Assembly (NCBI GenBank): GCA_964426025.1
Contig: CAYRQB010000001.1
Span: 1,151-65,150 of the forward strand
DNA length: 64,000 bases
Reading direction: 5' to 3'
From: an uncultured Heliomicrobium sp.
Lineage (GTDB): Bacteria; Acidobacteriota; Blastocatellia; RBC074
Part shown: positions 7,339 to 38,164 of the stretch, piece after piece
Numbering within the stretch: position 1 is the first letter of the stretch
Layout of the letters: every line of letters starts with the position of its first letter
Position numbers and translations under genes: made by a program
The notes under the pieces: generated by a model
What the model saw: only the letters and a program-made list of their open reading frames with translations
What the model was told of the DNA's origin: nothing
Database searches by the model: none

Positions 7339-7393
7339 ACGGAACAGACGGAAATAACGGAATGGACGGAAATTCCCCTTCCGTTTGTTCCGT
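7339..7393. promoter_or_regulatory. Array of six hexamers on a strict 9-bp period: ACGGAA four times, then TTCCGT twice
   Basis: ACGGAA occurs at 7339, 7348, 7357 and 7366. TTCCGT occurs at 7379 and 7388. The array lies about 80-130 nt upstream of the 7473 start. Confidence 0.5.
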
Positions 7394-7472
7394 CATTTTC
7401 CAGCTTTTCATTGCAGGCTTATTCGATGGCCTGAGCAGTTACCCTTTATCAACGAAACAAAGCGAGGGACTC

Positions 7473-10400: not shown

Positions 10401-11939
10401 TTCAAAACACTTGAGCAGAAATTGGAAGATGCTGCGTTGACTGACGCGGTGAAAAATCGTCTGGCCAGAAGATTAGTGGCGATTGCCGCTACGTTTTACG
10501 CTTCGGCGGGCGGCGACGGCGGCCCCGGTCAGATGGGTTACATCACCGCGGGCAGCACTGAGATGATGGGCAAAGCCGTCTTGCGTTTGTGGGGCAAAAC
10601 CGATGCGGCGAACATTCCGGAACTGCGACTGGTGATGGAAGGCGCGGCCAACGTCGCTTACGAACCTTTGCAGGACAAGATCATTGATTATTCGACGCAC
10701 GGCCCCGAAGAGCTTCGCACGCTGGCCGCCGCCGCAGTCAGTGATCCCAGCGCCGTGACCTTGCCCGCAGTTCAGGAGAAAGTCGAACCGCTGGTTGAAC
10801 AGATTCATCGCGCTGCGCCGGATTACGACCGCCGCCAATCGCTGGCTCAACCAGTCTTGCGATTGTTCAGCCGCGCCAAATGGGCTGTGCCGAAAACCAC
10901 CGAACAGCGCGATCTGCTTTACCGTTTGCTGATTCCCAAACACACAGCCGAACCGGGCACGGCGGAATTGAAGAAGATCATTGACGCCGCCGAAGCCGCC
11001 GTTCGTCCAATGGGTTTGCCGGATGCCGATTGGTACATCGCCGACCGAATGGGCGCGATGCTGGCGACGAACACTGATTTGCACACCGACGAATTGCTGC
11101 GCTTCATTCCCGGCGCGTCGAAAAATCCGCTGACTTCGCACTTCTGGCTGCCTTCGGTCGCCTGGGTCGCTTCGTATGGCGACGAGATTCCGGAAATTGA
11201 TTCCGCCAACAATCAACCGTCCTCGCCGCAGATTGCCGCCGCTCGCGCCCGCGCCATCGAACTGTTCGTGCAGATGTTGCAACCTTCGACTCCGGTCATG
11301 AGCCGCAACATCGCATTGCGATTGGCGAATACGACCGCTCTGCGGCAAGACCCGACTGTGCAGGCCGCGCTGCGGAAACTGGTCGAGACCGAAAAGAACA
11401 ACGTCGCGCGCAATGCTTTGAAATACTCCGATCCGCAAATCTGGATGGCCGAATTGCAGGAAGCGGTGAAGAAAGAACCGCTGGCCGCCAATTTGCTGGC
11501 TGGAAGCCTGAAAGATCAAACTCTTTCGCCGCAATTCATCGCCAGCTTTCGGTACTTCAGCGATTACGTGGCGCCGGAACTCAATCGCAATCAGCGAATG
11601 GATGAAATGTCCTGCATGAAATGCCACGCCGTCGAAGGCCGCGTGCCTTCGATGTATCTGGCCGGGCCGGACGGCAACGGATTCTGGACTGTGCCGAATA
11701 TGCTGAAGAATTATTTGACGCTGCAACAACGCGTCAATCCTGCGGACATCGAAACCAGCAAGCTGTTGCGCAAACCGCTCAACGTCCAAACCGGCAAGGA
11801 AGACGGTCACCAAGGCGGACGCCGTTACACGCCATCCGAACGCGGTTATCAGATCATTCGTCGCTGGGCGCTGGATCAACCGCGCGTGATGCAAAGTCAG
11901 GGAGCGCCGGCCACCGCTCAACCCGGAAAAAACAGATGA
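7473..11939 (+). CDS. Giant secreted/anchored multidomain protein with two CxxCH heme-c motifs, squalene-cyclase-like repeats and HEAT repeats
   Basis: The ATG at 7473 follows GAGGGA, and the track ORF starts upstream at 7362. It has an N-terminal TM/signal IIALSVFLISLSFLFWL. A PPC-like segment (SEPNDTPEQA...GDDWFRL) precedes the first heme motif HCMSCHTQSG. QxxDGSW-type repeats (NADGSWGF, QDPYGRWN) and HEAT-like repeats (VRVWSAMALGG, VRDAAAWAM, HPAVRAWAARAAW) follow. A second CMKCHAVEG motif sits near the C-terminus. Confidence 0.8.
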   Translation: MYSNRLNLKHRRIIALSVFLISLSFLFWLGKSEASRTANTAAVRLAPVKLNLQFGGKWEKRLALQRGETFELSVGLPSPSSLPHHGRIGVRWVLEKAEAGEALPIVAGRKTDAFGIYTAPTTDWRKVLHALDSDVYLVYRAPVAGQYRLEIAPITDEANIFSNPESIRWREDGVAPQAVNFPDKTPWPNGKTVPLNVTINPLDLNDSAKVGSFVESEPNDTPEQAQEVTLPEGPDDSKAIQAIRINGGADDIEYFDNGKVGKSGDDWFRLNFNGKEPRLLTANLAIPDHTLAAQLRFYALDESGALGEYTEGRNENERTHQQNEQHRASIVRLLKPGKTYLLRAEANAPGYELELRVLKPAPYDDPRMAVRQAVYDHLGQVDSWLTNRPRGASVERRIRDTGNLMGTHCMSCHTQSGVWGTAGPMENGYTLENKQNFRRLVNVMYESLRPTNYLKDAANNTSLAPLDVGDGPAGTRVAGHNVCTAERVIPARKLHSMQAIRAANHTIQTADPSGINAAGPGSNVGQSIVYNYAGEILRTAWDRTNHPRYLAALEEKADRMLGVLPRYSDDLSNRIEFFKRYFPQDYVAQNQKARTIYPTLPPDPKPQPTPTPSNDGKPVEPPPAIFPEYKLKSADAAAKLLERIAETIKKDEARLRAIQNADGSWGFDPGKPDGDKWKTNGEYDPAPTALALSAFHALGFTDKDPAVARGVKALLRMQDPYGRWNKNALTGFVTTSYVLHALARLYPEQPVKPTRAEFTPRAGESLPATIARVRALSHTDDPALVDLMIQASLHPSAQVRVWSAMALGGVHDERGVPTLIKLMGDQVKMVRDAAAWAMEQTLLDDKGFGTVFVAYETGGDLTRESIAKALGIRADAVMTKPTFSKTRLTALLDRAINDDRHPAVRAWAARAAWQWWIWNPPVREAINQSWTRKLLAAESNALVENTFRYQSHALFVVNGHKANGSEEHQYKELSGLFKTLEQKLEDAALTDAVKNRLARRLVAIAATFYASAGGDGGPGQMGYITAGSTEMMGKAVLRLWGKTDAANIPELRLVMEGAANVAYEPLQDKIIDYSTHGPEELRTLAAAAVSDPSAVTLPAVQEKVEPLVEQIHRAAPDYDRRQSLAQPVLRLFSRAKWAVPKTTEQRDLLYRLLIPKHTAEPGTAELKKIIDAAEAAVRPMGLPDADWYIADRMGAMLATNTDLHTDELLRFIPGASKNPLTSHFWLPSVAWVASYGDEIPEIDSANNQPSSPQIAAARARAIELFVQMLQPSTPVMSRNIALRLANTTALRQDPTVQAALRKLVETEKNNVARNALKYSDPQIWMAELQEAVKKEPLAANLLAGSLKDQTLSPQFIASFRYFSDYVAPELNRNQRMDEMSCMKCHAVEGRVPSMYLAGPDGNGFWTVPNMLKNYLTLQQRVNPADIETSKLLRKPLNVQTGKEDGHQGGRRYTPSERGYQIIRRWALDQPRVMQSQGAPATAQPGKNR

Positions 11940-11974: not shown

Positions 11975-13504
11975 TTAAGGCTGTTTGTCTTCTTTGCGGA
12001 TGGGATTGCCTTCCCATTTCCAAACGCCGTCTTCATTCACCAGCGATCGCGCTCCGTTCGGAGCGGTCGGTTTGGCGTTCGTCTTAGGCAGCCATTTGCG
12101 ATGTTCGGCGATGATCCTGGCGAAGCGCGGATTGCCTGCCAGATTGTTCCATTCGTTCGGATCGCGTCGCATATCGTAAAGCTCTTCTGAACCATCGGCG
12201 TAACGAATGTATCGCCAGCGCTCGCTTCGCACAGTGTGATTGTCCGGATTGTGGGTAGTAATGGCAGGCCATGGACGCGAAGCTTTTGCGTTTTTCAGGA
12301 GCGGTTTCAGGCTGTGACCTTCCAGTTCTTTACTGACTGGCAGACCGCTCAAATCGGCCAGCGTCGGATAAAGATCGAGCAATTCCACCGGGCGATTGCT
12401 GCGAGCGCCAACGGAAATTCCAGGCCCTGCGAAAACCAATGGCACTCGCGTTGAACGTTCCCACAAAGAGTTTTTCCCGCTGATTGCTTTTTCTCCCAGA
12501 TGCCATCCGTGATCCGACCACAAGACGACGACCGTGTTTTCGGCCAATCCGTTTTTTTCCAGAGCTTCCAGAACGCGGCCAACCTGATTGTCCACGAAAC
12601 TGACGCTGGCCAGATAAGCCCGAACCATTGGCCGCCATTGATTGGCGGATTGCAACCAGGACAAACGTGGCTCAGGCAATTTCCAGTGCAGATACCAGGA
12701 AAATTCCGGCGTGTCGTTGCGGTCATCGGCTTTGACCGCAGGCATGATCAGTTTGTCGTCCGGGTACAGATCGAACCATCGCTCGGGCGTGTAAAGCGGT
12801 ACGTGCGGCAATCGAAAACCCACGGCCAGAAAGAAAGGTTGCGACGGAGCCGAACGCAATTTTTCAATTGCCCAATCGGCCAGCTTCCAATCGTCGTGGT
12901 CTGAATCCGTTTCGGGGAACATCCCCCAATCCACCAGCCTGTGATTTTCCGGCGTGGTGACGAATTTCTGCGCGGGCAGGTTTTTGTAATTGTCCACCTG
13001 ATCCCAGACGTTGAATTCGTTTTTGCGCTCGGCGACTGGCGGCGATCCGTCGTGAAAGATTTTGCCCGCAGTGATCGTCCGATAACCATGCTGGGCCAGG
13101 TATTGCGGAAGCGTGACCAGATTCTTCAGGCTTTCGACGCGGCGAAACCACGGCTGCAAGGCGTAAACGCCGGTCGTTGTGGGACGCAATCCGGTCAACA
13201 GACTTGTGCGAGAAGGATTGCACAGCGGAGCCTGACAATGCGCGTTGGTGAATAGCGTGCCTCTGCCAGCCAGCCCGTCAATGGCAGGAGTTTGAACCTG
13301 TTGATGGCCGTTCATGCATCCGACCCAGTCGTTCAAATCGTCAATGGCTATGAACAGGTAATTGGGTTTGGTTGGTTGAGCTTGTTTCGTTTTCGATTGT
13401 CTGTCGCTGACAGCCTCTGCGATTTGCAGTGGCTGGATCAACAACGAAGCGAGACAAAGAGCGATGAAAAATTGTTTTGAGAATTTGACGGGGCTTTTGT
13501 TCAT
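11975..13504 (-). CDS. Sulfatase of the formylglycine type
   Basis: It has a signal peptide. The sulfatase signature CNPSRTSLLTGLRP contains the C-x-P-x-R target motif. Further motifs are IAIDDLNDW near the N-terminus and WSDHGWHLGE. Confidence 0.9.
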   Translation of the reverse strand: MNKSPVKFSKQFFIALCLASLLIQPLQIAEAVSDRQSKTKQAQPTKPNYLFIAIDDLNDWVGCMNGHQQVQTPAIDGLAGRGTLFTNAHCQAPLCNPSRTSLLTGLRPTTTGVYALQPWFRRVESLKNLVTLPQYLAQHGYRTITAGKIFHDGSPPVAERKNEFNVWDQVDNYKNLPAQKFVTTPENHRLVDWGMFPETDSDHDDWKLADWAIEKLRSAPSQPFFLAVGFRLPHVPLYTPERWFDLYPDDKLIMPAVKADDRNDTPEFSWYLHWKLPEPRLSWLQSANQWRPMVRAYLASVSFVDNQVGRVLEALEKNGLAENTVVVLWSDHGWHLGEKAISGKNSLWERSTRVPLVFAGPGISVGARSNRPVELLDLYPTLADLSGLPVSKELEGHSLKPLLKNAKASRPWPAITTHNPDNHTVRSERWRYIRYADGSEELYDMRRDPNEWNNLAGNPRFARIIAEHRKWLPKTNAKPTAPNGARSLVNEDGVWKWEGNPIRKEDKQP

Positions 13505-13727: not shown

Positions 13728-14690
13728 TTATTTCGCGCGATGGTAATCAATGACGCTTTTCAGGATTTCGTCCAGGCCGAAAGTCGGTTGATAACCGATC
13801 AGATCGCGAATTTTTGAAATGTCCGGGACGCGCCGCATCATGTCTTCAAAACCTTCTTCGTAGGCTTTTTCGTATGGCAGGAAGCTGATGCGCGAATTCG
13901 ATCCTGACAGAGCTTTGATTCGTTCGGCCAGTTGCAGGATGGTCACTTCGTAATCTCCGCCGATGTTGTAAACCTCGCCGACGGCATCGGGGTGTTCGAT
14001 CAATTTCATTAGCGCGCCGACCACGTCGTTGACGTGAGTGAAGCAGCGGCTTTGCGAACCGTCGCCGTAAACGGTGATGTCTTCGTTGCCAATCGCCTGT
14101 TTGACGAAGTTGGGAATGACCATCCCGTAACGTCCTGTTTGGCGCGGGCCGACTGTGTTGAACAAACGGGCAATGACGGTCGGGACTTTCTTTTCTTTCC
14201 AGTAGGCGATGGCCAGAAATTCGTCTATCGCCTTCGAGCAGGCGTAACTCCAACGGCCTTTGTTGGTCGCGCCCATGACCAGATCGTCGTCTTCGCGGAA
14301 AGGAATGGTTTCGCGTTTGCCGTAAACTTCCGATGTCGAAGTGATCAGCACGCGTTTGCGCTTCTTGGCGGCCTGAGCCAGAACGACTTCGGTTCCACGA
14401 ATGTTTGTTTCAATGGTTCTGACGGGACTTTCAACGATCAATCGAACTCCGACCGCCGCCGCCAGGTGATAAGTCGCATCGCACAAATCCACCAGTTCGG
14501 CCATCAATTGATGATTCGTCACCGTGTCGAGCGCGTAATGAAAGCCGGGGTTTTTCTTGATGTGTTCGATGTTTTCCATCGAACCGGTCGAAAGATCGTC
14601 AATGATGTAAACCTCGTCACCGCGTTCGAGATGCTTTTCAGCCAAATGCGAGCCAATGAAACCGGCTCCTCCTGTAATCAAAACTTTCAT
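13728..14690 (-). CDS. NAD-dependent epimerase/dehydratase, UDP-glucuronate decarboxylase or NDP-sugar 4,6-dehydratase-like SDR
   Basis: It carries the Rossmann motif MKVLITGGAGFIGSHL and the SDR catalytic motif YACSK. Overall similarity is to the UXS/RmlB family. Confidence 0.85.
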   Translation of the reverse strand: MKVLITGGAGFIGSHLAEKHLERGDEVYIIDDLSTGSMENIEHIKKNPGFHYALDTVTNHQLMAELVDLCDATYHLAAAVGVRLIVESPVRTIETNIRGTEVVLAQAAKKRKRVLITSTSEVYGKRETIPFREDDDLVMGATNKGRWSYACSKAIDEFLAIAYWKEKKVPTVIARLFNTVGPRQTGRYGMVIPNFVKQAIGNEDITVYGDGSQSRCFTHVNDVVGALMKLIEHPDAVGEVYNIGGDYEVTILQLAERIKALSGSNSRISFLPYEKAYEEGFEDMMRRVPDISKIRDLIGYQPTFGLDEILKSVIDYHRAK

Positions 14691-24779: not shown

Positions 24780-25564
24780 GTCGGTTGATGATTATTCCGG
24801 CGGCGGGTTTGGGGTCGCGATTGCAATCGGAAATACCGAAGGTTTTATTTCCGGTCAACGGACGACCGATGATTGATTACCTGTTCGATCTTTATGCGCC
24901 GTTGATTGATCACTTTGTTCTGGTGATTCATCCGTTCGCAGCAGTCGCTTTGGAAAGCCATTGCTCGCGTCTGAGATTGCCGATTGAGTTCGAGATTCAA
25001 TTAGCGCCAACGGGAATGCTGGACGCGATCATGATTTCGCAGGAAGTCGTCCGCCATCATCAACCTGATCAAGTCTGGATCACCTGGTGCGATCAAATAG
25101 CGGTTCGTCGTCAAACCATCGAGCGGTTGGCTGAAACCGCGACTGCGCGAAAAGACGCTGCGGTCGTCATGCCTACGATCATCAAACCGGAGCCTTATAT
25201 TCATTGGGTCAGAAACGAACGCGGGGAAATAGTTGATTTGCTGCAACGTCGCGAAGCAGACGACATGCCTGTGAGCGGAGAAGGCGACATTGGTTTGTTC
25301 AGTTTGTCGCGACGCGCTTATCTGGAATTGTTGCCGCGCTTCGCCGCCGAAGCAGGCATCGGCAGCGCGACTCAGGAAAGAAATTTCCTGCCGTTCATTC
25401 CCTGGTTGGCGAAACAGAAGGACGGCGAAACGGCGGTTTGCACTTTTCCGGCGCTGGATGAAATCGAATCCGTCGGCATCAACACCAAAGACGATCTGGC
25501 ATTGATCGAAAAATATTTGAGCAATGAACACACGCAAGCTTTCAGTCATCATTCCAGCTTATAA
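24776..25564 (+). CDS. IspD/TarI-like nucleotidyltransferase (probable cytidylyltransferase)
   Basis: IIPAAGLGSRLQSEIPKVLFPVNGRPMIDYL matches the PAAGxGxRM...PKQ(Y/F)L...G.P(I/L)L motif of the IspD/TarI family. It is coupled to the upstream gene by a 4-nt overlap. Confidence 0.65.
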   Translation: MSRLMIIPAAGLGSRLQSEIPKVLFPVNGRPMIDYLFDLYAPLIDHFVLVIHPFAAVALESHCSRLRLPIEFEIQLAPTGMLDAIMISQEVVRHHQPDQVWITWCDQIAVRRQTIERLAETATARKDAAVVMPTIIKPEPYIHWVRNERGEIVDLLQRREADDMPVSGEGDIGLFSLSRRAYLELLPRFAAEAGIGSATQERNFLPFIPWLAKQKDGETAVCTFPALDEIESVGINTKDDLALIEKYLSNEHTQAFSHHSSL

Positions 25565-26255
25565 CGAGGAACAGTTCATTGGCCGTTTGCTGGAAAAAGT
25601 TCTGGCCGTTGATTTGTCGCGCTTCAATCTGGAGAAGGAAGTCATTGTCGTTGACGACCGTTCAAGCGATCGCACGGCGGAAATCGCCGGTCAATTTTCC
25701 GAAGTCATTTTGCGAACTCACGAAGTGAACCAGGGCAAGGGCGGAGCAGTCAGAACCGGACTGGCTTTGGCCACAGGAGATTTCGTCATCATTCAGGACG
25801 CCGATCTGGAATACGATCCGAACGATTATGTGCAGATGTTTTTGGCTCTGTTTGAAAACGGCACGGGCGCTGTTTACGGCAGCCGATATATGAAACATCC
25901 GAACGGCGGAGTTTTCATCAACCTGCTGACCGGAAAACATCCAGGACAATCCTGGCCCGCATATCTGGGCGGACAAAGCCTTAGCTTCGCTTCGCTGATT
26001 TGCACCGGACGTTATCTGACAGACACCGTGACTGCGTTGAAGCTTTTCAAACAGGAAGTCATCAAACCGTTGGAGCTTCAGACGAGCGGCTTTGAACTGG
26101 ATCACGAAATTTCAGCCAAAGTCCTGGCCAAAGGTTACAAGATAAGAGAAGTGCCGATCAGCTATTTCCCTCGCAGCAAAGAGGAGGGGAAGAAGATCGG
26201 TTTGAAAGATTGGTTTATCGCTTTGAGAACGTTTTACCGTTTCCGCAGAGGTTGA
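25524..26255 (+). CDS. Glycosyltransferase family 2, DPM1-like
   Basis: GT2 core motifs are LSVIIPAYNEE, VIVVDDRSSDRT and IIQDADLEYDP (the DxD). Confidence 0.85.
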   Translation: MNTRKLSVIIPAYNEEQFIGRLLEKVLAVDLSRFNLEKEVIVVDDRSSDRTAEIAGQFSEVILRTHEVNQGKGGAVRTGLALATGDFVIIQDADLEYDPNDYVQMFLALFENGTGAVYGSRYMKHPNGGVFINLLTGKHPGQSWPAYLGGQSLSFASLICTGRYLTDTVTALKLFKQEVIKPLELQTSGFELDHEISAKVLAKGYKIREVPISYFPRSKEEGKKIGLKDWFIALRTFYRFRRG

Positions 26256-26376
26256 ATTTCTAAAATCCCCACCATTTTTGAACTATGGCTCGTCGAATGA
26301 TTGTAGGGCTGTCAAACTCCAGGTTTGCCGGAAGCCAACAGGCTTATCGAACGCGCCAGTTTGCCGGAGATAACAA

Positions 26377-27486
26377 GTGTGTGATTACGAAAAAGTAAAA
26401 ACAACCTGCGCCCCGCCGGAATCCACGCCCACACTTTCCGTCGTCATTCCCGTCTTCAATTCCAATGAGTTTTTGAAGAAATGTCTGGCGGCGCTGGCCG
26501 AATCGGATTTCGACGATTACGACGTGTTGGTGGTGGATGACGGTTCGACCGAAGCCGTGGAGCCGATTGTCAGGCAGCACGGTTACGAATACATGCGGAT
26601 TGAAGGTCCGGGCGGCCCGGCCAGAGCGCGCAATCGCGGGGTCGCTCGCGTCAAAGGCAAGTATCTGGTTTTCATTGACGCGGATGTTTGCGTTCATTCA
26701 GACACGCTTCGGCGCTTTGCCGAAGTCTTCGCCGCAGATTCGTCCATTGACGCCGTCGTCGGTTGTTATGACGAAACGCCCGCCGATCCGAGTTTCTTCT
26801 CGCAATACAAAAACCTTTTCCATCATTATGTTCACCACAGCAATGGCGGGTTGGTCAGCACTTTCTGGAGCGGATGCGGGGCGATGCGTCGCGATCTGTT
26901 TCTGGCTTTCGGCGGATTCGATGAAGAGCGTTACCGTCGTCCGGCCATCGAAGACATAGAGCTGGGAACGTGGGTCACAGCCGCCGGTTTTCAAATTGTG
27001 CTGGCTCCGCAGGTCAAGGCAACGCATCTGAAGAAATGGACGCTGTGGAGCATTCTGAAAACCGACATCTTCGACAGAGGCGTGCCGTGGATTCGGTTGA
27101 TGCTGCGCGCCGGAGCCGTTGCCAATACGCTGAACGCGAAACCGACTCAGCGATTCTGTGTGGCAATGGTTTGCCTGAGCAGTCTGTTGATGCCGTTGGC
27201 AATCTGGTGGCCGGTGACCGGAGTTATGGCTCTGGTTATGCTTTCAATCGTGACCGCCTTGAACATGGATTTTTATCGTTACTTTGCCGATCATTCCGGC
27301 ATCTGGTTCGCCGTTCGCGTCGTGCCTTTGCACTGGCTTTATTTCTGGTACTGCGGGTTCTGCGTTGTTTGGGGAACGATGCTGCATCATCTGGACGGTT
27401 CGTCGCGAAATCAACCATCGCCCTCGGAAAAGTTGGGTTCCGGCCTTTCCGCCAACAACGAGCGACAACCGACGACTTATAAATAA
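26377..27486 (+). CDS. Glycosyltransferase family 2 with a C-terminal multi-TM region
   Basis: GTG start. Motifs are LSVVIPVFNS, VLVVDDGSTE, FIDADV and GGFDEE. The C-terminal 120 aa are hydrophobic. Confidence 0.85.
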   Translation: MCDYEKVKTTCAPPESTPTLSVVIPVFNSNEFLKKCLAALAESDFDDYDVLVVDDGSTEAVEPIVRQHGYEYMRIEGPGGPARARNRGVARVKGKYLVFIDADVCVHSDTLRRFAEVFAADSSIDAVVGCYDETPADPSFFSQYKNLFHHYVHHSNGGLVSTFWSGCGAMRRDLFLAFGGFDEERYRRPAIEDIELGTWVTAAGFQIVLAPQVKATHLKKWTLWSILKTDIFDRGVPWIRLMLRAGAVANTLNAKPTQRFCVAMVCLSSLLMPLAIWWPVTGVMALVMLSIVTALNMDFYRYFADHSGIWFAVRVVPLHWLYFWYCGFCVVWGTMLHHLDGSSRNQPSPSEKLGSGLSANNERQPTTYK

Positions 27487-27524
27487 ACACCTGACGCCGA
27501 CAGGCGTTTCTTGATTGTTCAACA

Positions 27525-28439
27525 ATGTCAAAACCGAAACTGTCAATTGTCATAGCCTCCTGCGTTGGACCGCCGTTCATCAATCGTTGTTTGCAATCGC
27601 TGGACGCGCAACGCAATCAGGCTGAGCTTGAATTCATTGTGGTTGATCGCGCCGGAGGTGAAATCGCCGCCGGGATCGAACGGGATTTTCCCTGGGTTCG
27701 ATTGATTCATCGTCCGCCGGGCGAAAGCGTGCCGGATTTGCGCCGTCGCGGAATTGAGCAAGCTCAGGCCGATTACATCGCCATCATCGAAGAGCATTGC
27801 GTGGCTCGCGAAGATTGGATTGCCACGATTCTGCGTTGCATTGAAGAAGGCGACCTGAATCAAAAACCTGTCGCCGCCATCCGGGGCGTGGTGGCCGACG
27901 CCAATTACGAACGCCTGATGGATTGGGCTGTCTACTTCACTGAGTACAACTCTTACATGCCGCCGCTGGAACGCGGGACGACAGATGATGTTTGCGCCGC
28001 CAACTGCGTTTATCGCCGCGATCTGTTGCTGCGTTATCTGCCCGAAGAAGGCAGCGGTTATTGGGAAGCCGTGCTGAATAAAACTCTGCTGGACGCGGGC
28101 GAACGTTTTCTGGCCGAACCTGAACTGGTGGTTTATCACACAGGGCCGTTTGGTTTCGGTTATTACCTGTGGCAGCGTTACCTGTTCAGCCGCGCTTTCG
28201 CAGGCGTTCGCAGAACAAATGTTTCCGCCGCATTCCGACTGGTTTATCTGCTGGCCGCGCCGTTGATGGTTCCGTTGTTGTGGGCGCGAACCGCATCGCG
28301 CGTTTATCGCAAACGCCATCGCGTGGACAAATTCATTCAGGTGTTGCCGCATTTGGTTCCGATCACGGCGACTTATGTGTTCGGTGAATGGGTCGGCTTT
28401 CTGGCCGGGCCGGGCGACAGCCTTTCAAAGATCGAATAA
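27525..28439 (+). CDS. GT2-like protein, tandem paralog 1 (DxD replaced by EEH)
   Basis: Motifs are LSIVIASC, EFIVVDRAGGE, DYIAIIEEHC, DWAVYFTEYNSYMPPL and ELVVYH. A C-terminal TM helix is present. Confidence 0.7.
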   Translation: MSKPKLSIVIASCVGPPFINRCLQSLDAQRNQAELEFIVVDRAGGEIAAGIERDFPWVRLIHRPPGESVPDLRRRGIEQAQADYIAIIEEHCVAREDWIATILRCIEEGDLNQKPVAAIRGVVADANYERLMDWAVYFTEYNSYMPPLERGTTDDVCAANCVYRRDLLLRYLPEEGSGYWEAVLNKTLLDAGERFLAEPELVVYHTGPFGFGYYLWQRYLFSRAFAGVRRTNVSAAFRLVYLLAAPLMVPLLWARTASRVYRKRHRVDKFIQVLPHLVPITATYVFGEWVGFLAGPGDSLSKIE

Positions 28440-29440
28440 TGACAGAGCAAACAAAGACCAACGCAGACGACAACGCGCCGGAGCTTTCCGTCGTGGTTGC
28501 CATCATCGCAGGCGGTTCAGCGCCGATGCGCAATTGCCTGACCGCGCTTGAAGCCAGCGCGATGGAACACGGCGTCGAGTGTCTGGTTCCATACGACGAC
28601 CGGTTGGACGGCGTGGCGGAACTTTCGGCGCAATTTCGCTGGGTCAGATTCATTGACGCCCGCGACAAAGTTGACGCTGCGCTGTTCGGCGATTTCAGCC
28701 GCGAACATCACGACATTCTGCGCGCCATCGGCATCAATCAAGCGCGCGGCAGAATCGTAGCCTTGCTGGAAGATCACGCCGCTCCGCCGCCCGGATGGTG
28801 CGGCGCAATGCTGGCGGCTCATCGCGGATCGGAAGCGGCCATCGGCGGCGCGGTCGAAAACGGAGTTGACCGATTGCTCAATTGGGCTGTCTACCTTTGC
28901 GATTTTGGCCGGTACATGAATCCTGTGCCGACAGGCCCGGCTGAATTTCTTAGCGACAGCAACATCTCTTACAAACGACAAGCGCTGGAACAAGTCAAAG
29001 ATCAATGGCAAAACGCCTTTCACGAAACCGCAGTCAATTGGGAATTGCGCCGATTGGGCGAACAGTTGCGGCTCGATCCTGAGATGGTCGTTTATCAGGC
29101 TCGTCACGGTTTGCGGCTGATTCCGGCTTTGCGCGAACGATTTGTCTGGGGACGTTCGTTTGCCGGAACGCGAGCGAAAGATATGAGCCTGGTTCAGCGC
29201 GCGGTTTTCTCCGGCATATCGTTTCTGTTGCCGTTTGTTCTGACGCTGAGAATAGTGCGGTTGGCATTGGCCAAAGGCCGTCACCTGAATCGCATTGTGC
29301 CAGCGTTGCCGCTGGTTTTCGTGTTGCAGATTTTCTGGTCGCTGGGCGAATTGGCCGGTTATGTCACCGGTCGAACCGGCGGCCCTGAAGGCATATCGAG
29401 CGAGAAGGATTCGTATCTTGAGTCAACGTCGCGAACTTAA
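28439..29440 (+). CDS. GT2-like protein, tandem paralog 2 (EDH)
   Basis: The ATG overlaps the upstream TAA (TAATG); the track ORF starts at 28388. Motifs are LSVVVAIIAGG, RIVALLEDHAAPPPGW, NWAVYLCDFGRYMNPV and EMVVYQ. Confidence 0.7.
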   Translation: MTEQTKTNADDNAPELSVVVAIIAGGSAPMRNCLTALEASAMEHGVECLVPYDDRLDGVAELSAQFRWVRFIDARDKVDAALFGDFSREHHDILRAIGINQARGRIVALLEDHAAPPPGWCGAMLAAHRGSEAAIGGAVENGVDRLLNWAVYLCDFGRYMNPVPTGPAEFLSDSNISYKRQALEQVKDQWQNAFHETAVNWELRRLGEQLRLDPEMVVYQARHGLRLIPALRERFVWGRSFAGTRAKDMSLVQRAVFSGISFLLPFVLTLRIVRLALAKGRHLNRIVPALPLVFVLQIFWSLGELAGYVTGRTGGPEGISSEKDSYLESTSRT

Positions 29441-29467
29441 ACAGTAGCAATCGCTTTCAAACCGATC

Positions 29468-30463
29468 TTGAATCACCAGGCAAAAAACGACATCGCGATT
29501 TCCATTTTGATCACAGTGATCAGCGGCAAAGAAACCATGCGCCGATGCCTGAAAGCCTTGCAGCCGCAGGTTCAATCGCTGGTTGCTGAGATCATCGTTC
29601 CGTACGACGAATGGTCAAACGAGATTGGCGATTTGAAAACCGAATTTCCGGCAGTGAATTTTCCCTTTGTCGCCGATTTGGGAATCGCCGCCGATCCGAA
29701 CGTCCCCGCGCATCAACACAGACTTTGCGACCGTCGCCGTGCGATCGGTTTGCAGATGGCGCGCGGACGGGTCATTGCCATGACCGAAGATCAGGTTATT
29801 CCGGCAACGGATTGGGTCGAACAGATTCTGGCGGCTCACGACCGATTGCCCGACGCGGTGATTGGCGGTTCGATTGACAACGTGGTTGATCATCCGTTGC
29901 ATTGGGCCGCGTATTACTGCGATCACGGGCGATACGGCAGTCCGTTGGCGGCAACCGAAGCCGAATACGTTTCCGACCTCAACATCTCCTACAAACGCGA
30001 AGCGATGGAAATCACCCGCGATGTCTGGGGCGAAGCTTACAGCGAAACGAAAGTGCATTGGGCTTTGCGAGAGCGCGGCATGAAATTGCGGCTTGATCCG
30101 ACGCTGAAAGTTTACAAACACCGACCGGAGTTTGATTACTGGCACGCCGTCCGCGAGCGCGCCGAATGGGGCAGAGTTTTTGCCGAAACCAGAACGGTCA
30201 GCGCGGGATTGAAACAGAGGATTTTATTCGCCGCGATGACGCCGCTTTTGCCCGCATTGCTGCTGATGCGCAATTGCAAACACATGCTCAGGCAGAATCG
30301 AACGGCAGTGCAGATGATTTTGGCTCTGCCATTGATCGCGGGGTTTTTGATCGCCTGGTCGTGGGGCGAACTGCTTGGCTACGTTTTCGGCGAACCGCAT
30401 GCCGGTGAGCCAAAAGCTGTGACAAGCGAACTGGCGAATTCAAGAATCTCGAATACCGATTGA
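29468..30463 (+). CDS. GT2-like protein, tandem paralog 3 (EDQ)
   Basis: Probable TTG start. Motifs are IAISILITVISG, RVIAMTEDQVIPATDW and HWAAYYCDHGRYGSPL. Confidence 0.65.
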   Translation: MNHQAKNDIAISILITVISGKETMRRCLKALQPQVQSLVAEIIVPYDEWSNEIGDLKTEFPAVNFPFVADLGIAADPNVPAHQHRLCDRRRAIGLQMARGRVIAMTEDQVIPATDWVEQILAAHDRLPDAVIGGSIDNVVDHPLHWAAYYCDHGRYGSPLAATEAEYVSDLNISYKREAMEITRDVWGEAYSETKVHWALRERGMKLRLDPTLKVYKHRPEFDYWHAVRERAEWGRVFAETRTVSAGLKQRILFAAMTPLLPALLLMRNCKHMLRQNRTAVQMILALPLIAGFLIAWSWGELLGYVFGEPHAGEPKAVTSELANSRISNTD

Positions 30464-31218
30464 AGATGTTTACGATTCTTACTTATCACTCGATTGACGA
30501 CAGCGGTTCGGTGGTTTCCGTCGCGCCGCAAACTTTCGCCGATCAGATGGCTTGTTTGTCGGAAATCGGTTATCGCGGAATTTCAATGCGCGAAGCCGTC
30601 GCTCATTTCAAATCGCAAGGCCGCTGGCCGGAAAAATGCGCCGCGCTGACTTTCGATGACGGCTTCGCCAACTTTTACGACGACGCGACACCTGTGCTGG
30701 CTCGGCACAATTTTTCGGCGACGGTGTTCGTCATCAGCGGTCATATGGATGGTCGCAACGATTGGGCCGAACCGCCCGCCGGTTTGGGTTGGCGCGACAT
30801 GCTGTCGTGGAAACAGGTGCGAGAGTTGTCGGCGTTGGGAATTGAGATTGGCGCGCACACTCGCACGCATCCCGATTTGCGCGCTTTGTCATCCAGCCAA
30901 CTCGAAGAAGAGATCGCCGGTTCATGCGTCGAAATCAGCGATTACACCGGCCAGCAGGTTGAAAGTTTCGCCTACCCATTCGGTTACCTGGACAATTCGG
31001 CGGAAGATGCAGTGGCGCGAGCGGTTCGTTCGGCCTGCACTACAGAATTGCGCAGAGCGAACGACGACCCGCTTCATTTGCTGCCTCGTGTTGATATGTA
31101 TTACCTGCAATCGCCGCGTCAGTTGCAATTGCTGGTCAAAGGAAAACTTGACGGTTATCTAACCATCAGGCGTTGGGGCCGAGCCGTCAAACAAACACTG
31201 ACCGAACGCAGACATTAA
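30460..31218 (+). CDS. Polysaccharide deacetylase (CE4, NodB-homology domain)
   Basis: ALTFDDGFANFYD carries the DD metal-binding motif. ATVFVISGH and IEIGAHTRTHPDL carry the His motifs. Confidence 0.85.
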   Translation: MKMFTILTYHSIDDSGSVVSVAPQTFADQMACLSEIGYRGISMREAVAHFKSQGRWPEKCAALTFDDGFANFYDDATPVLARHNFSATVFVISGHMDGRNDWAEPPAGLGWRDMLSWKQVRELSALGIEIGAHTRTHPDLRALSSSQLEEEIAGSCVEISDYTGQQVESFAYPFGYLDNSAEDAVARAVRSACTTELRRANDDPLHLLPRVDMYYLQSPRQLQLLVKGKLDGYLTIRRWGRAVKQTLTERRH

Positions 31219-31363
31219 GCCGGAAAGCGGACAATAGCCGGAACACGGAAATAGCCGGAACGCGGACGTTCCCGTCCGCAAACTGGTTGGCGGACTTCCA
31301 GTCCGCCCTTCACGCTGGAGTAGATTTCTCAATTACAACATACACGCGGACAGAATGTCCGCG
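31219..31363. promoter_or_regulatory. Three tandem 17-bp direct repeats followed by three GCGGAC..GTCCGC hairpins
   Basis: The direct repeats are gccggaaagcggacaat, agccggaacacggaaat and agccggaacgcggacgtt, spanning 31219..31270. The hairpins are GCGGACgttcccGTCCGC at 31262..31279, GGCGGACTtccAGTCCGCC at 31289..31307 and CGCGGACAgaaTGTCCGCG at 31345..31363. Confidence 0.6.
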
Positions 31364-31378
31364 TTCCAAGGAATGACC

Positions 31379-32533
31379 ATGCAGCTATTAAACCGAGTCG
31401 CAAAACACGCGCGTTTGAACTGGCAGAATCTGGCCATACCGGACGTGACCAGCCCGCCTTTCGTGATCCTGTTCATCAATTCGATCTGCAATATGAAATG
31501 CGAACATTGCTTTTACTGGTCGAGTCTGAACAAACGCGACGACCTGAGCTTTGAAGAAATCGTGGCTTTGTCCAAAGAACTGGGGCCGATTGAAAACCTG
31601 AATCTTTCAGGCGGCGAGCCTTTTTTGCGAAAAGAGTTCGGCGCGATCTGTCGCCAGTTCATTCAGCAAAACGGCGTCAAGGAAATTTACGTTCCCAGCA
31701 ACGGCTGGTACACGGACAAAACCATCGCGCAGATTCGTGAAACGCTGAAGGAAAAAAGCCTGAAGATTTTCGCTATCGAACTTTCGCTTGACGGCATGCA
31801 GGAATTCCATGACCGGTTCCGCGTCGCTCCTGGCGCTTTTGAACATGCGATGAAAACTTACGACGCATTGGTTGAATTGCAACGCGAAGATTCACGGTTG
31901 CAGATTCATTCAATTTCAACCGCAACTGCCGAAAACATGGACGAGATTCGGCGGCTGACGACTTACCTGTACGAGCGTTGTCCGCAAATGTCGCATCACA
32001 ATCTGGCGCTGATTCGCGGCGACCGCAAAAATCCTTCGTTGCAGGGACCGAAGCTGGCCGAATACCAGAGGCTTTACGAATACGTCAAACGTTTGTGGGC
32101 GCCGCGCGAAGAAAGCCGTTACGGCAGCATAGTCGAACCGATGCTGCAATGGGCGAAAGTCAAAACCGCCGAAGAGCAACGGCAAGTCATCCCTTGCCGC
32201 GCAGGAGTGTTGAGCGTGGTCATCAACGCCAACGGCGACGTTGGGCTTTGTGAACAGCACAAACCAATCGGCAATCTGCGGCAGAAATCATTCAACGAAA
32301 TCTGGCATTCTGAAGAAACGCGTCGGCTTAGAGCTTCGATCAGCGCGAAAGAATGTTATTGCACCAACGAAATTTTCCTGTGGCCGAGCATCACTTTCCA
32401 ACCGGTTCAATTGGCCAAAGCCATGATCGGCGCAAAGGTCTGGCGGAAGGCTGAGCCTTTGCCCGTTGGCGAACGCGCGGATTACAACGCGAGCGGAAAA
32501 ATGGAATTGCCGATTTTGCCGATGAAGCAGTGA
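31379..32533 (+). CDS. Radical SAM enzyme with a reduced SPASM/twitch-type C-terminal domain
   Basis: CNMKCEHC is a Cx3Cx2C motif. GGEP is present. The C-terminal Cys residues are CRAG, LCEQH and ECYC only. The start is taken at the ATG at 31379, which has an AAGGAA 6 nt upstream; the track start at 31355 lies inside a hairpin. Confidence 0.8.
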
Positions 32534-32541
32534 ATTTACCT

Positions 32542-32559
32542 GCGGACAAGGATGTCCGC
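32542..32559. promoter_or_regulatory. GCGGACAaggaTGTCCGC hairpin/palindrome 13 nt upstream of the Wzx start
   Basis: It shares the same half-sites, and a following (C/T)TCCAAG, with the hairpin at 31345..31363. Confidence 0.55.
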
Positions 32560-32571: not shown

Positions 32572-33843
32572 ATGTTGTTCAAAAATTTCCTATCACTGGC
32601 CGGAGCCGAAATCGCCGCGAAGGCGTTGACCTTTGCGGCGTTCGCTTATCTGGCGCGAGTGGCCGGGCCGGACGGATTCGGTTACATCGAATTCGCGGCG
32701 GCTGTGGTGATGTGTGCCGGTCTGGTCGTCGAACAAGGCTTCAATCCATTCGGCGCGCGCGAAATCGCCAAATCGCCCGAACGGACGAACGCGCTGGTTT
32801 CGGAAATTTTTCTGGTTCGATTGGTTCTGGCAATCTGTTTGTATGTTGGCGTGGTCGTCTTCTCTCTGAGCTTCGATCGTTCGCCGCTGCTGACGCGCTT
32901 GTTGTTGGTTTACGGTTTGAGTCTGTTGGCGATGCCCTTGCTATTGCAATGGGTCTTTCAGGGTCACGACCGAATGCAAGTTGTCGCGGCGATTCAAATC
33001 ATACGGCAGATGGTTTTTGCGGCGATGGTCTTTGGATTCGTTCGCGAAGCTTCGCAAATCTGGATGGTCGGATTGGCGGAAACCGCCGGATTGATCGGCG
33101 CAGCGGCTTTCGGCGTCTGGATGTATCGTTGTCAATTGAACGGCAGAATTCATCTGCGGTTAAGCGTTTCATCCCGGTTGGTTCGCGAAGGCGCGACCAT
33201 CGGATTGAGCCAGATTTTCTGGGTCGTCAAAATGTCCGGCGCGACGTTGATTATGGGTTTGATGGCGACGGCTGAAGACGTAGGTTACTTCGGCGGAGCG
33301 ATGCGGATTCTGATGGCGCTTCACACCTTCGTCTGGCTTTACTTCTTCAATATGCTGCCGACGATGTCCAGGTCCTGGGCGGCTGCGGACGGTTCGTTTG
33401 CCGCACTGATAGCGCGTTCGATGCGATTGATTGTGGCGCTGTCGTTTGTCGGAGCGATCATCTGGGTGATGGCGTCTCCGTTGGTTGTCAGAATTGCTTA
33501 CGGCCAGGCTTTTGCTCCGGCGGGCGTGGCGTTGCAATGGTTCGCGGGCGTTTGCGCTGTGGCGGCCATCAGCGGTCATTACCGTTTCGGTTTGATCGCC
33601 GCCGGACATCAGACCGCAGAAATGCTGACGGCATTGATCGGCGCGATTGCCGCTGTGATTCTGGTTCCGGCTGGTTATTTCGCCTCTGGCGTTGGCGGAG
33701 CGGCGGCGGGATTGTTCATCGGCGAAGTTCTGATCTGGCTCAGCGCGTGGTGGTTCGGGCGAAGGAAATTGCACTTGGGTTCGCGCCGCTTCGACAGCGC
33801 GGCGGTCGGAAGCGCGGCTTATCAGGGTGAGGTCACACAGTGA
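32572..33843 (+). CDS. wzx: Wzx-type oligosaccharide flippase (polysaccharide biosynthesis protein, MOP superfamily)
   Basis: 423 aa with about 12 TM segments. Composition and length are typical of the PST-family Wzx. Confidence 0.75.
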   Translation: MLFKNFLSLAGAEIAAKALTFAAFAYLARVAGPDGFGYIEFAAAVVMCAGLVVEQGFNPFGAREIAKSPERTNALVSEIFLVRLVLAICLYVGVVVFSLSFDRSPLLTRLLLVYGLSLLAMPLLLQWVFQGHDRMQVVAAIQIIRQMVFAAMVFGFVREASQIWMVGLAETAGLIGAAAFGVWMYRCQLNGRIHLRLSVSSRLVREGATIGLSQIFWVVKMSGATLIMGLMATAEDVGYFGGAMRILMALHTFVWLYFFNMLPTMSRSWAAADGSFAALIARSMRLIVALSFVGAIIWVMASPLVVRIAYGQAFAPAGVALQWFAGVCAVAAISGHYRFGLIAAGHQTAEMLTALIGAIAAVILVPAGYFASGVGGAAAGLFIGEVLIWLSAWWFGRRKLHLGSRRFDSAAVGSAAYQGEVTQ

Positions 33844-35435
33844 TTGCAAATCGAGTAGCGGATTGGGAAACGAGTTCGGCATCGTCTGAATCGGAAGCCT
33901 TGTCGCGATTCGAACCTGAACCGTGGCGGTTTACGACGCGCGGGCTGGCCTGGAGATTGTTTCTGACTTGCTGGTTGGTTTACGCGATGCATTTCGCCAC
34001 CAACGTCGTGCGTGAAATTTATCCGGCGCTTTCCATCGGCGATCACTTTTCGTTTCGGGTTGACGAGTACGCCAACCTGCATCCTGATTTGTTTGAAAAG
34101 CCCGGTTACGGTTGGCACATCAACAACAACCCCGGAGCTTCGATGATCGCGGCGATTCCTTACGCCGTTGCGCGTCCGGTCATTGACCGCGTGGTCGAAC
34201 GCGTTCGTCAACAACGCGCGGCCAGCGGATTGACCGAACCGCCCGCTTACAATTCGCCGTGGCCATTGGCGCGAGAATTTTTCAAAGAATCCTGGAAGCG
34301 CGGTTACGACATCAAATTCGGTTTGGCTGCCTTGGTGACTCAGGCTTTGTGCATGGCTCCGATTTCCGCGCTCGGCGTGGTGGTCATGTTTTATGTGCTG
34401 AGACAGGTTTTCGCTTCGGACAAATGGGCGTTGTTGCTGTCGCTGCTTTACGGATTCGGCACGCCGGTTTTTTTCCGCACGGGTTTCCTGAACCAGAATA
34501 TGTTGATGGCGAATGCCGCTTTTCTGGCTTTGGTGGTGATGTGGAACCCGAGCGGCAGTCGGCGATTGACGACGCGAACCAGATACTTTCTGGGCGGCAT
34601 CGGAGGCGGAACTGCCTTGCTCATGGATTACAGCGGAATGGTGATGTTGCTCGGTTTGTTCGCTTACGGATTGATCAAACGTTGGCGCGAAGCTTCGATT
34701 GCCGATTCCGTACGTCACGGCGCGATGTATGTGCTGGGAACTCTGCCGCCGGTCGGTCTGCTGTGGTTTTATCAATGGCGAAGTTTCGGCCATCCGTTTC
34801 TTCCGGCTCAGCATTGGATGCCGAAAGTCGCTTATATCGAACAGGGTTATCAGGGATTCAGTTTGCCGCAACCGGATTTGCTGTTGGCTTTGCTGGCGGA
34901 TTACCGATACGGATTGTTCACCAGTTGTCCGCTGTTTCTGCTGGCGTTCGCAGCCTGGTGGGTGAACCGGCGTCACAGGCAATTGGAAAGCTGGGAATTG
35001 TTTTCGCTGGCGGCGATCAGCGCGGCGCTGTGGATTTTCTTCAGTTGCGTTGGTTATTCGCGGCTGCAATTCAACAGCGGCATTCGATATTTCGCTCCGG
35101 CCTTTCCGCTGCTGTTCATTCTGTCGGCGATTGTGTTGATGCGGTTGCCGAAGATGCCGGCTTACTTCATTGCCGTTGCCGCGCTGACTGAATCGTGGTG
35201 TCTGGCCATGTACAGAGATGTCGAACGCGGACTTGGCGTGATTGATCCGCTGGTCAACGTTTTCATAGGCGGATTCAAATTGCCCGCTTTGACCACGCTG
35301 CAAAATATGGGCGGACAGTACGGCGGATTTTCCGCTCAGGGAGTTTCACCTTTGCCGCTGTTCGTTTTGATGGCGGCGATTCTTTATGGAATTTGGTTCA
35401 GTACCGGGAGCGGTAGCGACCGGGTGAAGTCGTAA
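33840..35435 (+). CDS. Polytopic membrane protein, putative GT-C-like glycosyltransferase or polymerase
   Basis: 531 aa and multi-TM. The first loop contains RVDEYANLHPD, a DE motif. It is coupled to wzx by a 4-nt overlap. Confidence 0.5.
   Translation: MIANRVADWETSSASSESEALSRFEPEPWRFTTRGLAWRLFLTCWLVYAMHFATNVVREIYPALSIGDHFSFRVDEYANLHPDLFEKPGYGWHINNNPGASMIAAIPYAVARPVIDRVVERVRQQRAASGLTEPPAYNSPWPLAREFFKESWKRGYDIKFGLAALVTQALCMAPISALGVVVMFYVLRQVFASDKWALLLSLLYGFGTPVFFRTGFLNQNMLMANAAFLALVVMWNPSGSRRLTTRTRYFLGGIGGGTALLMDYSGMVMLLGLFAYGLIKRWREASIADSVRHGAMYVLGTLPPVGLLWFYQWRSFGHPFLPAQHWMPKVAYIEQGYQGFSLPQPDLLLALLADYRYGLFTSCPLFLLAFAAWWVNRRHRQLESWELFSLAAISAALWIFFSCVGYSRLQFNSGIRYFAPAFPLLFILSAIVLMRLPKMPAYFIAVAALTESWCLAMYRDVERGLGVIDPLVNVFIGGFKLPALTTLQNMGGQYGGFSAQGVSPLPLFVLMAAILYGIWFSTGSGSDRVKS

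Positions 35436-36416: not shown

Positions 36417-36420
<4 letters not shown>
35452..36420 (+). CDS. UbiA-family prenyl-phosphate phosphoribosyltransferase-like (DPPR-synthase-like)
   Basis: IINDVADAEADRAHPEKRLRPIASG is the NDxxDxxxD Mg-binding motif. Multi-TM. Similarity is to decaprenyl-phosphate phosphoribosyltransferase. Confidence 0.8.

Positions 36421-38164
<1,744 letters not shown>

Follow-up and report, generated by a model that had tools for sequence, protein, structure and literature searches.

The DNA analysed here, a 64,000-nucleotide (nt) stretch of contig CAYRQB010000001.1 from an uncultured Heliomicrobium sp. (referred to below as the window), encodes at 31379..32533 a radical S-adenosylmethionine (SAM) enzyme, hereafter rSAM, which probably makes an unusual, undescribed sugar within bacterial surface-sugar clusters. 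We regard it as very probable that the substrate of rSAM is a carbohydrate. The reading that we prefer is narrower and is given a probability of roughly 0.45: the enzyme would act on the cytoplasmic side of the membrane and tailor a sugar on a polyprenyl-linked glycan that a Wzx-type flippase flips directly afterwards, where we infer both the lipid linkage and the order of the steps. In this pathway, membrane-anchored GT2 glycosyltransferases (GT2_b and three paralogues termed GTcde) would assemble the glycan on polyprenyl phosphate at the inner membrane face, and an adjoining CE4 deacetylase lacking a signal peptide would take off an N-acetyl group. rSAM would then reductively cleave SAM, the resulting 5'-deoxyadenosyl radical would take a hydrogen from a sugar carbon of the lipid-linked intermediate, and the Wzx encoded directly downstream would flip the modified unit. 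An earlier note on this DNA, made from its letters only, had proposed a carbohydrate-acting enzyme with a twitch domain, and this proposal is strengthened by fusions of rSAM to GT2 domains and by synteny of rSAM with glycosyltransferases, the CE4 deacetylase and Wzx across phyla.

A search with rSAM gave 3491 homologues at E<=1e-3, of which the best 120 listed are 72-92% identical, so that chance can be dismissed and the gene is real. Every protein of a 1.84-billion-protein library was also read, and here 664 clusters (50% identity) score below 1e-30. The family is made up of a tight core and a surrounding cloud at 30-40% identity with the same invariant residues. Copies that are 58-75% identical occur in species-representative genomes of Acidobacteriota, Planctomycetota, Gemmatimonadota, Chloroflexota, Binatia and alpha-, beta- and delta-proteobacteria, as well as on a cyanobacterial plasmid and in an Acidimicrobiaceae metagenome-assembled genome (MAG), and about ten lineages of phylum or class rank are represented in the family as a whole. 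The cloud includes at least six representative clusters, all within the best 150 relatives, that are GT2-rSAM fusions, 629-721 aa long and with the GT2 domain at the N-terminus; the GT2 domain of all six finds its best match within the window in GT2_b (26377..27486). Three of the six fusions have two transmembrane (TM) helices between the GT2 and rSAM domains, a hairpin that GT2_b also has, and such a hairpin puts both catalytic domains on the same side of the membrane, necessarily the cytoplasm. Where distant relatives are unfused, a GT2_b-type gene directly adjoins rSAM in about 10 of 32 loci. The plasmid collection yielded a single remote relative, from the cultured gut bacterium Parabacteroides distasonis (25% identity, E 2e-31), which is paired with a glycosyltransferase annotated for lipid glycosylation (11938-14415 of locus L167, NZ_OY725749.1); this pairing is suggestive, yet too distant to count.

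For the comparison of gene order, the open reading frames (ORFs) of 127 related loci were clustered. A callable rSAM ORF was present in 97 of these, 86 could be scored downstream and 84 upstream, and the 32 loci with at least 7 kb on either side of rSAM are called well-flanked below. A Wzx of one subfamily lies directly downstream of rSAM in 31/86 loci, co-directional in all, with the two genes meeting at -4 or -1 nt in 10 of the 31. Directly upstream, a CE4 deacetylase was found in 17/84 loci (same strand in all) and a GTcde-type GT2 in 13/84; 12 loci have the deacetylase–rSAM–Wzx triad, and a member of the GTcde family lies at most three genes from rSAM in 35 of the 97. The full string GT2a–GT2b–GTcde(n)–deacetylase–rSAM–Wzx–u531, in which u531 is a multi-pass membrane protein, is repeated in the window, L084 and L099, and is shorter or permuted in L086, L087, L092, L100 and L134; in L164, GT2b–GTcde–deacetylase–rSAM is contiguous though Wzx lies 8 kb further on. 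A Planctomycetota MAG has the window's order GT2_b–GTcde–deacetylase–rSAM–Wzx–u531, with identities to the window of 75% (rSAM), 59-67% (glycosyltransferases), 50% (deacetylase), 54% (Wzx) and 49% (u531). Clustered glycosyltransferase families were present in 27/32 well-flanked loci. Within glycan clusters, the rSAM gene behaves like a module for tailoring. The earlier note had also named a deacetylase, Wzx and glycosyltransferases as the neighbours in the window itself, and Pfam matches identify all three (the CE4 and Wzx genes of Table 1 and five GT2 genes at 25524..30463).

Nevertheless, a number of observations weigh against our preferred reading. No partner is obligatory in the well-flanked loci, where Wzx is present in 18/32 (56%), GT2b/GTcde in 19/32 (59%) and the deacetylase in 13/32 (41%), and all of these are missing from 3/32. 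A copy from a cultured strain, Ruegeria sediminis (61% identical), has no recognisable glycan genes around it, in a locus that was partly mis-called by crude ORF picking. Structure and sequence searches fail to separate sugar-acting from peptide-acting relatives, with the peptide maturase SkfB at the top. The catalytic base put forward below follows a role of Asp277 in the anaerobic sulfatase-maturating enzyme anSME (the Asp of its 'PCD' motif) that is itself a proposal. Finally, rSAM is more conserved than every neighbour in the cassette, as one would sooner expect if its substrate were soluble and shared by many bacteria, like a nucleotide sugar, than if it were an oligosaccharide that varies.

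This last point leads to an alternative that we consider unlikely but still of some weight, namely that rSAM tailors a soluble NDP-sugar, as DesII does with TDP-sugars, and so supplies an unusual donor for the neighbouring glycosyltransferases. Such a role would suit the most conserved gene of the cassette, which keeps 60-92% identity across phyla while the glycosyltransferases drift, and a gene that is found in otherwise very dissimilar glycan clusters; additionally, the structure search has both DesII and BlsE among its best matches. It is harder to reconcile with the fusion of rSAM to a membrane-anchored GT2 via a TM hairpin, with the close and often overlapping junction with Wzx, and with the pairing with a CE4 deacetylase. 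The CE4 family is known to act on glycans or lipid-linked sugars rather than on NDP-sugars.

A different lipid-linked substrate is suggested by the Arn system (the GT2 ArnC, the CE4-type deformylase ArnD, ArnE/F and the GT-C ArnT), in which a GT2 or a synthase makes a lipid-linked sugar that undergoes tailoring in the cytoplasm and, once flipped, serves a GT-C glycosyltransferase. We know of no radical SAM enzyme in Arn or in the three-component pentofuranose systems. The latter follow the same logic, and the window has all of these gene types in one block; the tailoring enzymes in the known cases are a deformylase or SDR/DprE-type epimerases (PMC11127046). By this analogy, rSAM would modify a polyprenyl-P monosaccharide made by a GtrB/ArnC-type GT2, deacetylated wherever a CE4 is present, which the adjoining MOP flippase would flip and the adjoining u531 would transfer in the periplasm. 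We hold this to be rather improbable. It is favoured by the Bryobacterales loci L030, L031, L033 and L152, where rSAM-Wzx-u531(-GT2af) is the entire recognisable module, and by u531, which is GT-C-like and has homologues fused to a GtrB-type GT2. A GT-C gene is present in 18/32 well-flanked loci, and auxiliary enzymes acting on undecaprenyl-P-sugars before flipping have precedent (PMC11127046). On the other hand, L166 has the u531 system without rSAM, the fusion partner of rSAM is of the GT2_b and not the GtrB type, the known flippases of polyprenyl-P monosaccharides are small 4-TM proteins rather than Wzx-sized ones, and u531 lies within 10 kb in only 10/32 loci.

We assign u531 as a GT-C glycosyltransferase with moderate confidence, on the annotations of its homologues, on fusions and on a weak but consistent fold match. 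Pfam gave no match for u531 itself, but PF02366 or PF13231 is found on about 20 of its 120 best homologues, one of which bears the name 'phospholipid carrier-dependent glycosyltransferase'. A GtrB-type GT2 is fused to seven of the homologues, and the best match of these GT2 domains is GT2_f, with GT2_a among those that come after it. When the AlphaFold2 (AF2) model of u531 (pLDDT 76.7) was searched with Foldseek, eight of the ten top matches were GT-C, and the GT-C folds matched are Pmt4, ArnT, PimE, AglB, AftA, DPY19 and Pmt1/Pmt2. A profile-profile comparison of u531 with the PMT_2 family of the window was negative (probability 2.7%), and a profile search against PDB sequences gave no match. 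GT2_a clusters with the GT2 domains fused to u531 homologues and is a candidate polyprenyl-P-sugar synthase.

The rSAM gene runs from 31379 to 32533 (+), starts with ATG and encodes 384 aa. In the ORF list it is longer (31355..32533 (+), 392 aa), with 31379 as the second ATG. The N-termini of homologues coincide with the position of ATG 31379 in the homologue search and alignment, NCBI has the exact 384-aa form, on a contig of 89,107 bp, while the 392-aa form is not on record, and a Shine-Dalgarno-like AAGGAA lies upstream of 31379; for these reasons we take 31379..32533 to be the correct gene. The NCBI cluster mates and close relatives carry generic labels only, such as 'radical SAM protein'. 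All motifs that had been quoted for a radical SAM enzyme, CX3CX2C (the stretch of residues 37-47) and GGEP, are present, and the Pfam Radical_SAM (PF04055) match of 59.9 bits is above the cut-off of 29.5.

That the C-terminal domain has only four cysteines and is therefore twitch-like, as the earlier note had it, was checked on alignments of first 20 and then 70 family members, with identity down to 28%, and the count stands. The cysteines C37/C41/C44 and C273 (in PCRAG), C291 (in LCEQH) and C328 are invariant in both alignments, and C326, which forms ECYC with C328, is invariant among the 20 sequences and at least 90% conserved among the 70; C91 and C201 of the core vary in both. E292, which adjoins C291, is invariant. 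The resulting twitch pattern is C273-X17-C291 with G286-X4-C291, followed by C326-X-C328, and neither the protein nor the two alignments contain a CX2CX5CX3C block or the seven to eight cysteines of a full SPASM domain. Four conserved auxiliary cysteines make one auxiliary cluster possible and thus indicate a domain of the twitch type, not full SPASM; the Pfam SPASM model still matches residues 273-328 (45 bits, cut-off 21.5) because it covers the half common to SPASM and twitch. A twitch domain is recognised by a cysteine on either side of a beta-hairpin (C-X9-17-G-X4-C) and two more cysteines downstream; by this pattern the C-terminal domain is assigned to the twitch class, and a second Fe-S cluster is predicted.

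The AF2 model of rSAM (pLDDT 93.9, pTM 0.91) has alternating strands and helices at residues 28-211, as in a partial TIM-barrel core, strands 279-282 and 287-289 between C273 and C291, and a two-helix insert at 226-266. When searched against the PDB with Foldseek, it retrieved only enzymes of the SPASM/twitch branch (SkfB, SuiB, BlsE, CteB, anSME, DesII, MoaA, viperin, PqqE and BtrN), at TM values of about 0.55 and none of them close. No signal peptide or TM helix was found in rSAM or in the adjoining deacetylase (30460..31218), and both are therefore expected to work in the cytoplasm. Among the best 25 of 69 NCBIfam matches, no curated cut-off was reached, including that of the generic twitch model NF033640 (N_Twi_rSAM; 63.1 bits against 170). 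The best matches belong to the NirJ/Ahb group and fall far under their cut-offs (NirJ2 80.8/500, NirJ1 71.8/650, AhbD 64.1/500); with equivalog scores this low and no tetrapyrrole genes among the neighbours by Pfam, membership in NirJ, AhbC or AhbD was rejected.

The closest solved structure to rSAM both by sequence and by fold is SkfB, the maturase of sporulation killing factor (PDB 6EFN), with E-values of 4.9e-11 for the protein and 4.2e-22 for the family profile and a TM of 0.57, followed by CteB and SuiB. SkfB is also of the twitch type, and its CxC pair aligns to C326/C328. These similarities speak for a maturase like SkfB, CteB and SuiB, with a ribosomal peptide or a protein of the cluster as its substrate. 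We nevertheless consider this very improbable. Identity to SkfB is 21%, and both its N-terminal extension of about 100 residues and its adjoining precursor gene are absent here. The rSAM core begins at about residue 28, and there is no N-terminal peptide-recognition domain among the four Pfam matches; the peptide-maturase models of NCBIfam remain far under cut-off (SkfB 49 vs 300, MftC 50.7 vs 265, WgkB 57 vs 650). In the 97 related loci no conserved precursor ORF was found, and the median spacers, 55 bp upstream of rSAM and 17.5 bp downstream, are too short for one, as are those of L085, a locus at 90% identity with spacers of about 30 bp and 12 bp. The sole small ORF near the gene, 31173..31376 (67 aa, TTG start), overlaps the 3' end of the deacetylase in another frame and is not conserved. 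The absence of a nearby precursor gene and the rejection of a peptide maturase, both claimed before, therefore agree with what we find.

Another maturase role, also raised and disfavoured in the earlier note, is that of an anSME-like enzyme for the Cys-type sulfatase at 11975..13504, on the minus strand. This sulfatase (PF00884 1.4e-50) has the motif PLCNPSRTSLLTG and an N-terminal hydrophobic leader. Its CNPSR motif and leader are as such a role would have it, and no FGE-like gene was detected in the window by a crude six-frame motif scan; the earlier description of a C-x-P-x-R sulfatase 18 kb upstream with no FGE or anSME beside it is borne out, the two scanned neighbours (7362..11939 and 13728..14690) being neither. 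Furthermore, rSAM is alignable with anSME (PDB 4K36-4K39) over residues 27-318, the invariant Glu292 of the family lines up with an Asp of anSME that comes directly after the second cysteine of the hairpin, and the oxidation chemistry is possibly shared. In contrast, anSME has two auxiliary clusters with about eight cysteines and a protein substrate, while the family here keeps four and lacks the second-cluster cysteines, with scores against PDB anSME of 18.5 bits for the protein and 53 bits for the family profile. TIGR03942 (anSME) is absent among the best 25 of 69 NCBIfam matches and so scores under 39.6 bits, the value of the last of the 25. Between rSAM and the sulfatase there are 18 kb, the latter being on the opposite strand and outside the glycan cluster, and sulfatase genes are not recurrent neighbours of rSAM: the two in L001 are proteins of about 700 aa, and the recurring sulfatase-like cluster c23 reads TVRASS at the expected Cys/Ser-x-P-x-R site. 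We therefore give the anSME-like role hardly any credence.

Among sugar-acting enzymes, the earlier note had pointed to BtrN and DesII as analogues. BtrN, the 2-deoxy-scyllo-inosamine dehydrogenase of the butirosin pathway, is the founding twitch enzyme. As an analogue it holds for the twitch segment, where residues 265-327 of the family align with BtrN 181-245 (33.8 bits), but not for family membership, as the twitch segment alone aligns and the whole-protein TM is 0.39 (TMq). Similar to rSAM, BtrN has a radical SAM core with a single-cluster C-terminal extension, and the C-X17-C spacing around the beta-hairpin matches that of C169/C187 in BtrN. The two would also share the amino-sugar or aminocyclitol substrate class proposed here, in a pathway that likewise has an N-deacetylase. 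They differ in that rSAM is about 130 residues longer with the insert at 226-266, has CxC where BtrN has CxxC, and lies in a Wzx-dependent glycan context rather than an antibiotic cluster. As for DesII, which had been cited as a twitch enzyme, we know of no auxiliary cluster in it. The sugar decarboxylase, deaminase, epimerase and dehydratase BlsE, DesII, NeoN and AprD4 belong to the same superfamily branch and act on sugars, and BlsE (TMt 0.66) and DesII are among the top fold matches of rSAM, but there is no family-level similarity. By these comparisons, rSAM would work like the sugar-acting twitch enzymes yet falls outside every family that was tested.

The pathway logic proposed here is also that of the hopanoid enzymes HpnI/HpnK/HpnJ and of calditol synthase (Cds), in which a deacetylase and then a radical SAM enzyme act on a membrane-bound substrate. 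HpnJ has a B12-binding domain, and HpnK is of the YdjC type, not CE4. In the synthesis of the hopanoid cyclitol ether, a GT2 puts GlcNAc on the lipid, and once its amine has been freed by a deacetylase, the sugar is rearranged by a radical SAM enzyme; HpnK acts before HpnJ, and the radical step is a ring contraction (PMC13459092). GT2_b matches HpnI weakly (2.1e-9), but the components in the window are not orthologous to the Hpn proteins, and rSAM (31379..32533) has no match to the B12-binding domain PF02310 and is thus unlike HpnJ. Additionally, the sugar here presumably sits on a polyprenyl carrier, which is flipped later, rather than on a final membrane lipid as in the Hpn and Cds pathways.

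As to the reaction, our leading but tentative guess, drawn by analogy with BtrN and anSME, is a two-electron oxidation of C-OH to a ketone. The auxiliary cluster would accept the second electron, and Glu292, beside the cluster ligand C291, would serve as the base. We put this guess first because C291-E292 aligns with the 'PCD' of anSME in the profile alignment and because the single predicted auxiliary cluster would be redox-capable. Other conceivable reactions are epimerisation, deamination or dehydration, decarboxylation and ring contraction, and C-C cleavage or decarboxylation would fit the best NCBIfam matches (NirJ, AhbC, AhbD) and the structural match to BlsE. NeoN needs a conserved non-cluster cysteine as hydrogen donor. 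Here the sole candidate is C91, and since neither C91 nor C201 is conserved, an epimerase of the NeoN type with a cysteine donor is not supported. Two further leads were dropped: a replacement of DprE1/E2 acting on polyprenyl-phosphoribose, as a UbiA-type synthase is found in only 4/32 loci, and the archaeal glucuronyl C5-epimerase Agl32, as the paper on it has no mention of 'radical'.

It is conceivable, though we find it doubtful, that the family catalyses a new radical reaction on a polyprenyl-linked glycan before flipping, giving an undescribed type of monosaccharide, with a co-adapted Wzx subfamily. Such a reaction might contract the ring to give a carba- or cyclitol sugar, epimerise an unactivated carbon, or yield a deoxy-keto sugar by deamination. 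If this were true, soil Acidobacteriota, Planctomycetota, Gemmatimonadota and other groups would have the undescribed sugar in their exopolysaccharides. To our knowledge, radical SAM sugar chemistry is confined to antibiotic pathways (BtrN, DesII, AprD4, NeoN, BlsE) and lipid head groups (HpnJ, Cds) and has not been described for Wzx-dependent polysaccharides; a full-text literature search likewise found no paper on this rSAM family or on radical SAM tailoring in Wzx-dependent polysaccharide assembly. The family is large, its core is unusually conserved, and it is tied to glycosyltransferases by fusion and to Wzx by overlapping frames. Its reaction, once worked out, would add a new type of glycan-tailoring step, a new sugar would probably come to light in abundant soil bacteria, the exopolysaccharides of which are poorly known, and the rSAM gene would serve as a genomic marker for such glycans.

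Table 1. Coordinates of rSAM, its sequence motifs, the neighbouring genes and the palindromic elements in the window
Feature	Position	Strand	Evidence and remarks
Radical SAM / twitch-domain enzyme (rSAM)	31379..32533	+	PF04055 4.6e-16, PF13186 1.4e-11; AF2 pLDDT 93.9
CX3CX2C (C37, C41, C44), ligands of the SAM-cleaving [4Fe-4S] cluster	31487..31510	+	Invariant in the 20- and 70-sequence alignments
GGEP (residues 78-81), SAM-binding 'GGE' motif	31610..31621	+	G78, G79 and P81 invariant; E80 at least 90%
Twitch (half-SPASM) segment, residues 273-328	32195..32362	+	Pfam SPASM match; cysteine conservation
CE4 polysaccharide deacetylase, 252 aa	30460..31218	+	PF01522 2.7e-26; likely upstream partner
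Wzx-type (MOP) flippase, 423 aa	32572..33843	+	PF01943 8.6e-30; commonest partner
u531, multi-pass membrane protein, probably a GT-C polyprenyl-phosphate-sugar-dependent glycosyltransferase	33840..35435	+	Homologues, fold
GT2_b glycosyltransferase, 369 aa	26377..27486	+	Pfam GT2, Glyco_tranf_2_3, Glyco_transf_21; C-terminal TM hairpin, helices 260-292
GTcde, three tandem paralogous GT2-like genes	27525-28439, 28388-29440, 29468-30463	+	Weak PF00535
GT2_a, soluble GT2, 243 aa	25524..26255	+	PF00535 1.3e-32; first cassette gene
Three GCGGAC-N4-6-GTCCGC palindromes, deacetylase-rSAM spacer	31262-31279, 31290-31306, 31346-31362	+	Motif count
Fourth GCGGAC-N4-6-GTCCGC palindrome, rSAM-Wzx spacer, 12 nt before the Wzx start	32542..32559	+	Motif count

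The deacetylase has TFDDG and HTRTH sequences that resemble CE4 signatures, with weak matches to PgaB, IcaB and HfsH. Both spacers around rSAM contain the perfect palindrome GCGGAC-N4-6-GTCCGC, which occurs four times in the 64 kb, always flanking rSAM, against an expectation of 0.05. The upstream spacer is predicted to fold as RNA at -56.6 kcal/mol (z = -5.3), in which palindromes 1 and 3 can pair with each other, and this structured leader has no match in Rfam. A leader GCGYTCCAAG(R)A is common to rSAM and Wzx and lies just before both start codons. The palindromes are absent from the 90%-identical L085 and from 161/166 loci, and are thus a lineage-specific insertion, which may be REP-like or else may serve to control the expression of rSAM and Wzx specifically.

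Taken together, the genes of the window form a glycan cluster that exceeds 50 kb and includes nucleotide-sugar enzymes, a Wzz-like protein, an adjoining P-loop ATPase and a WbaP-like initiating transferase. At its far end, after the Wzz-like, P-loop ATPase and WbaP-like genes, the cluster has a second CE4 deacetylase (62980-63996, 338 aa). A second radical SAM gene (44404-46449, 681 aa), of the B12-binding class, lies beside a GT2 (46453-47235) and a sugar C-methyltransferase (47431-48702, Methyltransf_13/14), and B12-type radical SAM genes (clusters c2 and c19) repeat in related loci. The glycan of the window may also bear radical-methylated sugars.

Downstream of u531, a UbiA-family gene (35452-36420) passes the NCBIfam cut-offs for decaprenyl-phosphate phosphoribosyltransferase (252 vs 234 bits) and is followed by a PMT_2 GT-C gene (36402-38168) and a GtrB-like GT2 (38165-39160). 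By analogy, the block 35452-39160 looks like a periplasmic pentofuranose side-chain system (PMC11127046); no DprE1/E2 or SDR epimerase was identified beside it. In two related loci (10001-15468 of L164 and 8919-14363 of L166), the gene for a u531–GtrB-type GT2 fusion of about 820 aa precedes those for an SDR (453 aa) and for a protein resembling GMC oxidoreductases (535 aa), a pair that could be an oxidase/reductase acting on a polyprenyl-P-sugar, analogous to DprE1/DprE2.

Genes similar to FAD-dependent amine oxidases and phytoene desaturases, often in several copies, are found in 14/32 well-flanked loci, and were seen in L005, L013, L017, L018, L099, L118 and L164; in the window they occupy 15983-17944. 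Upstream of the cassette, genes for a 712-aa CofD-like protein (21994-24132), a HAD hydrolase (24129-24779) and a MobA-like nucleotidyltransferase (24776-25564) stand in a row within the glycan cluster. This block resembles the CofC/CofD logic of F420 synthesis and, by that analogy, may add a sugar substituent of the phospho-lactate or phospho-glycerate type. Lastly, an acidobacterial origin of the window is indicated by the names of close homologues (Blastocatellales, Acidobacteriota) together with the gene at 41190-43406, which encodes a 738-aa protein with one N-terminal TM helix and a match of 142.9 bits to the 'Solibacter uncharacterized C-terminal domain' TIGR03437.

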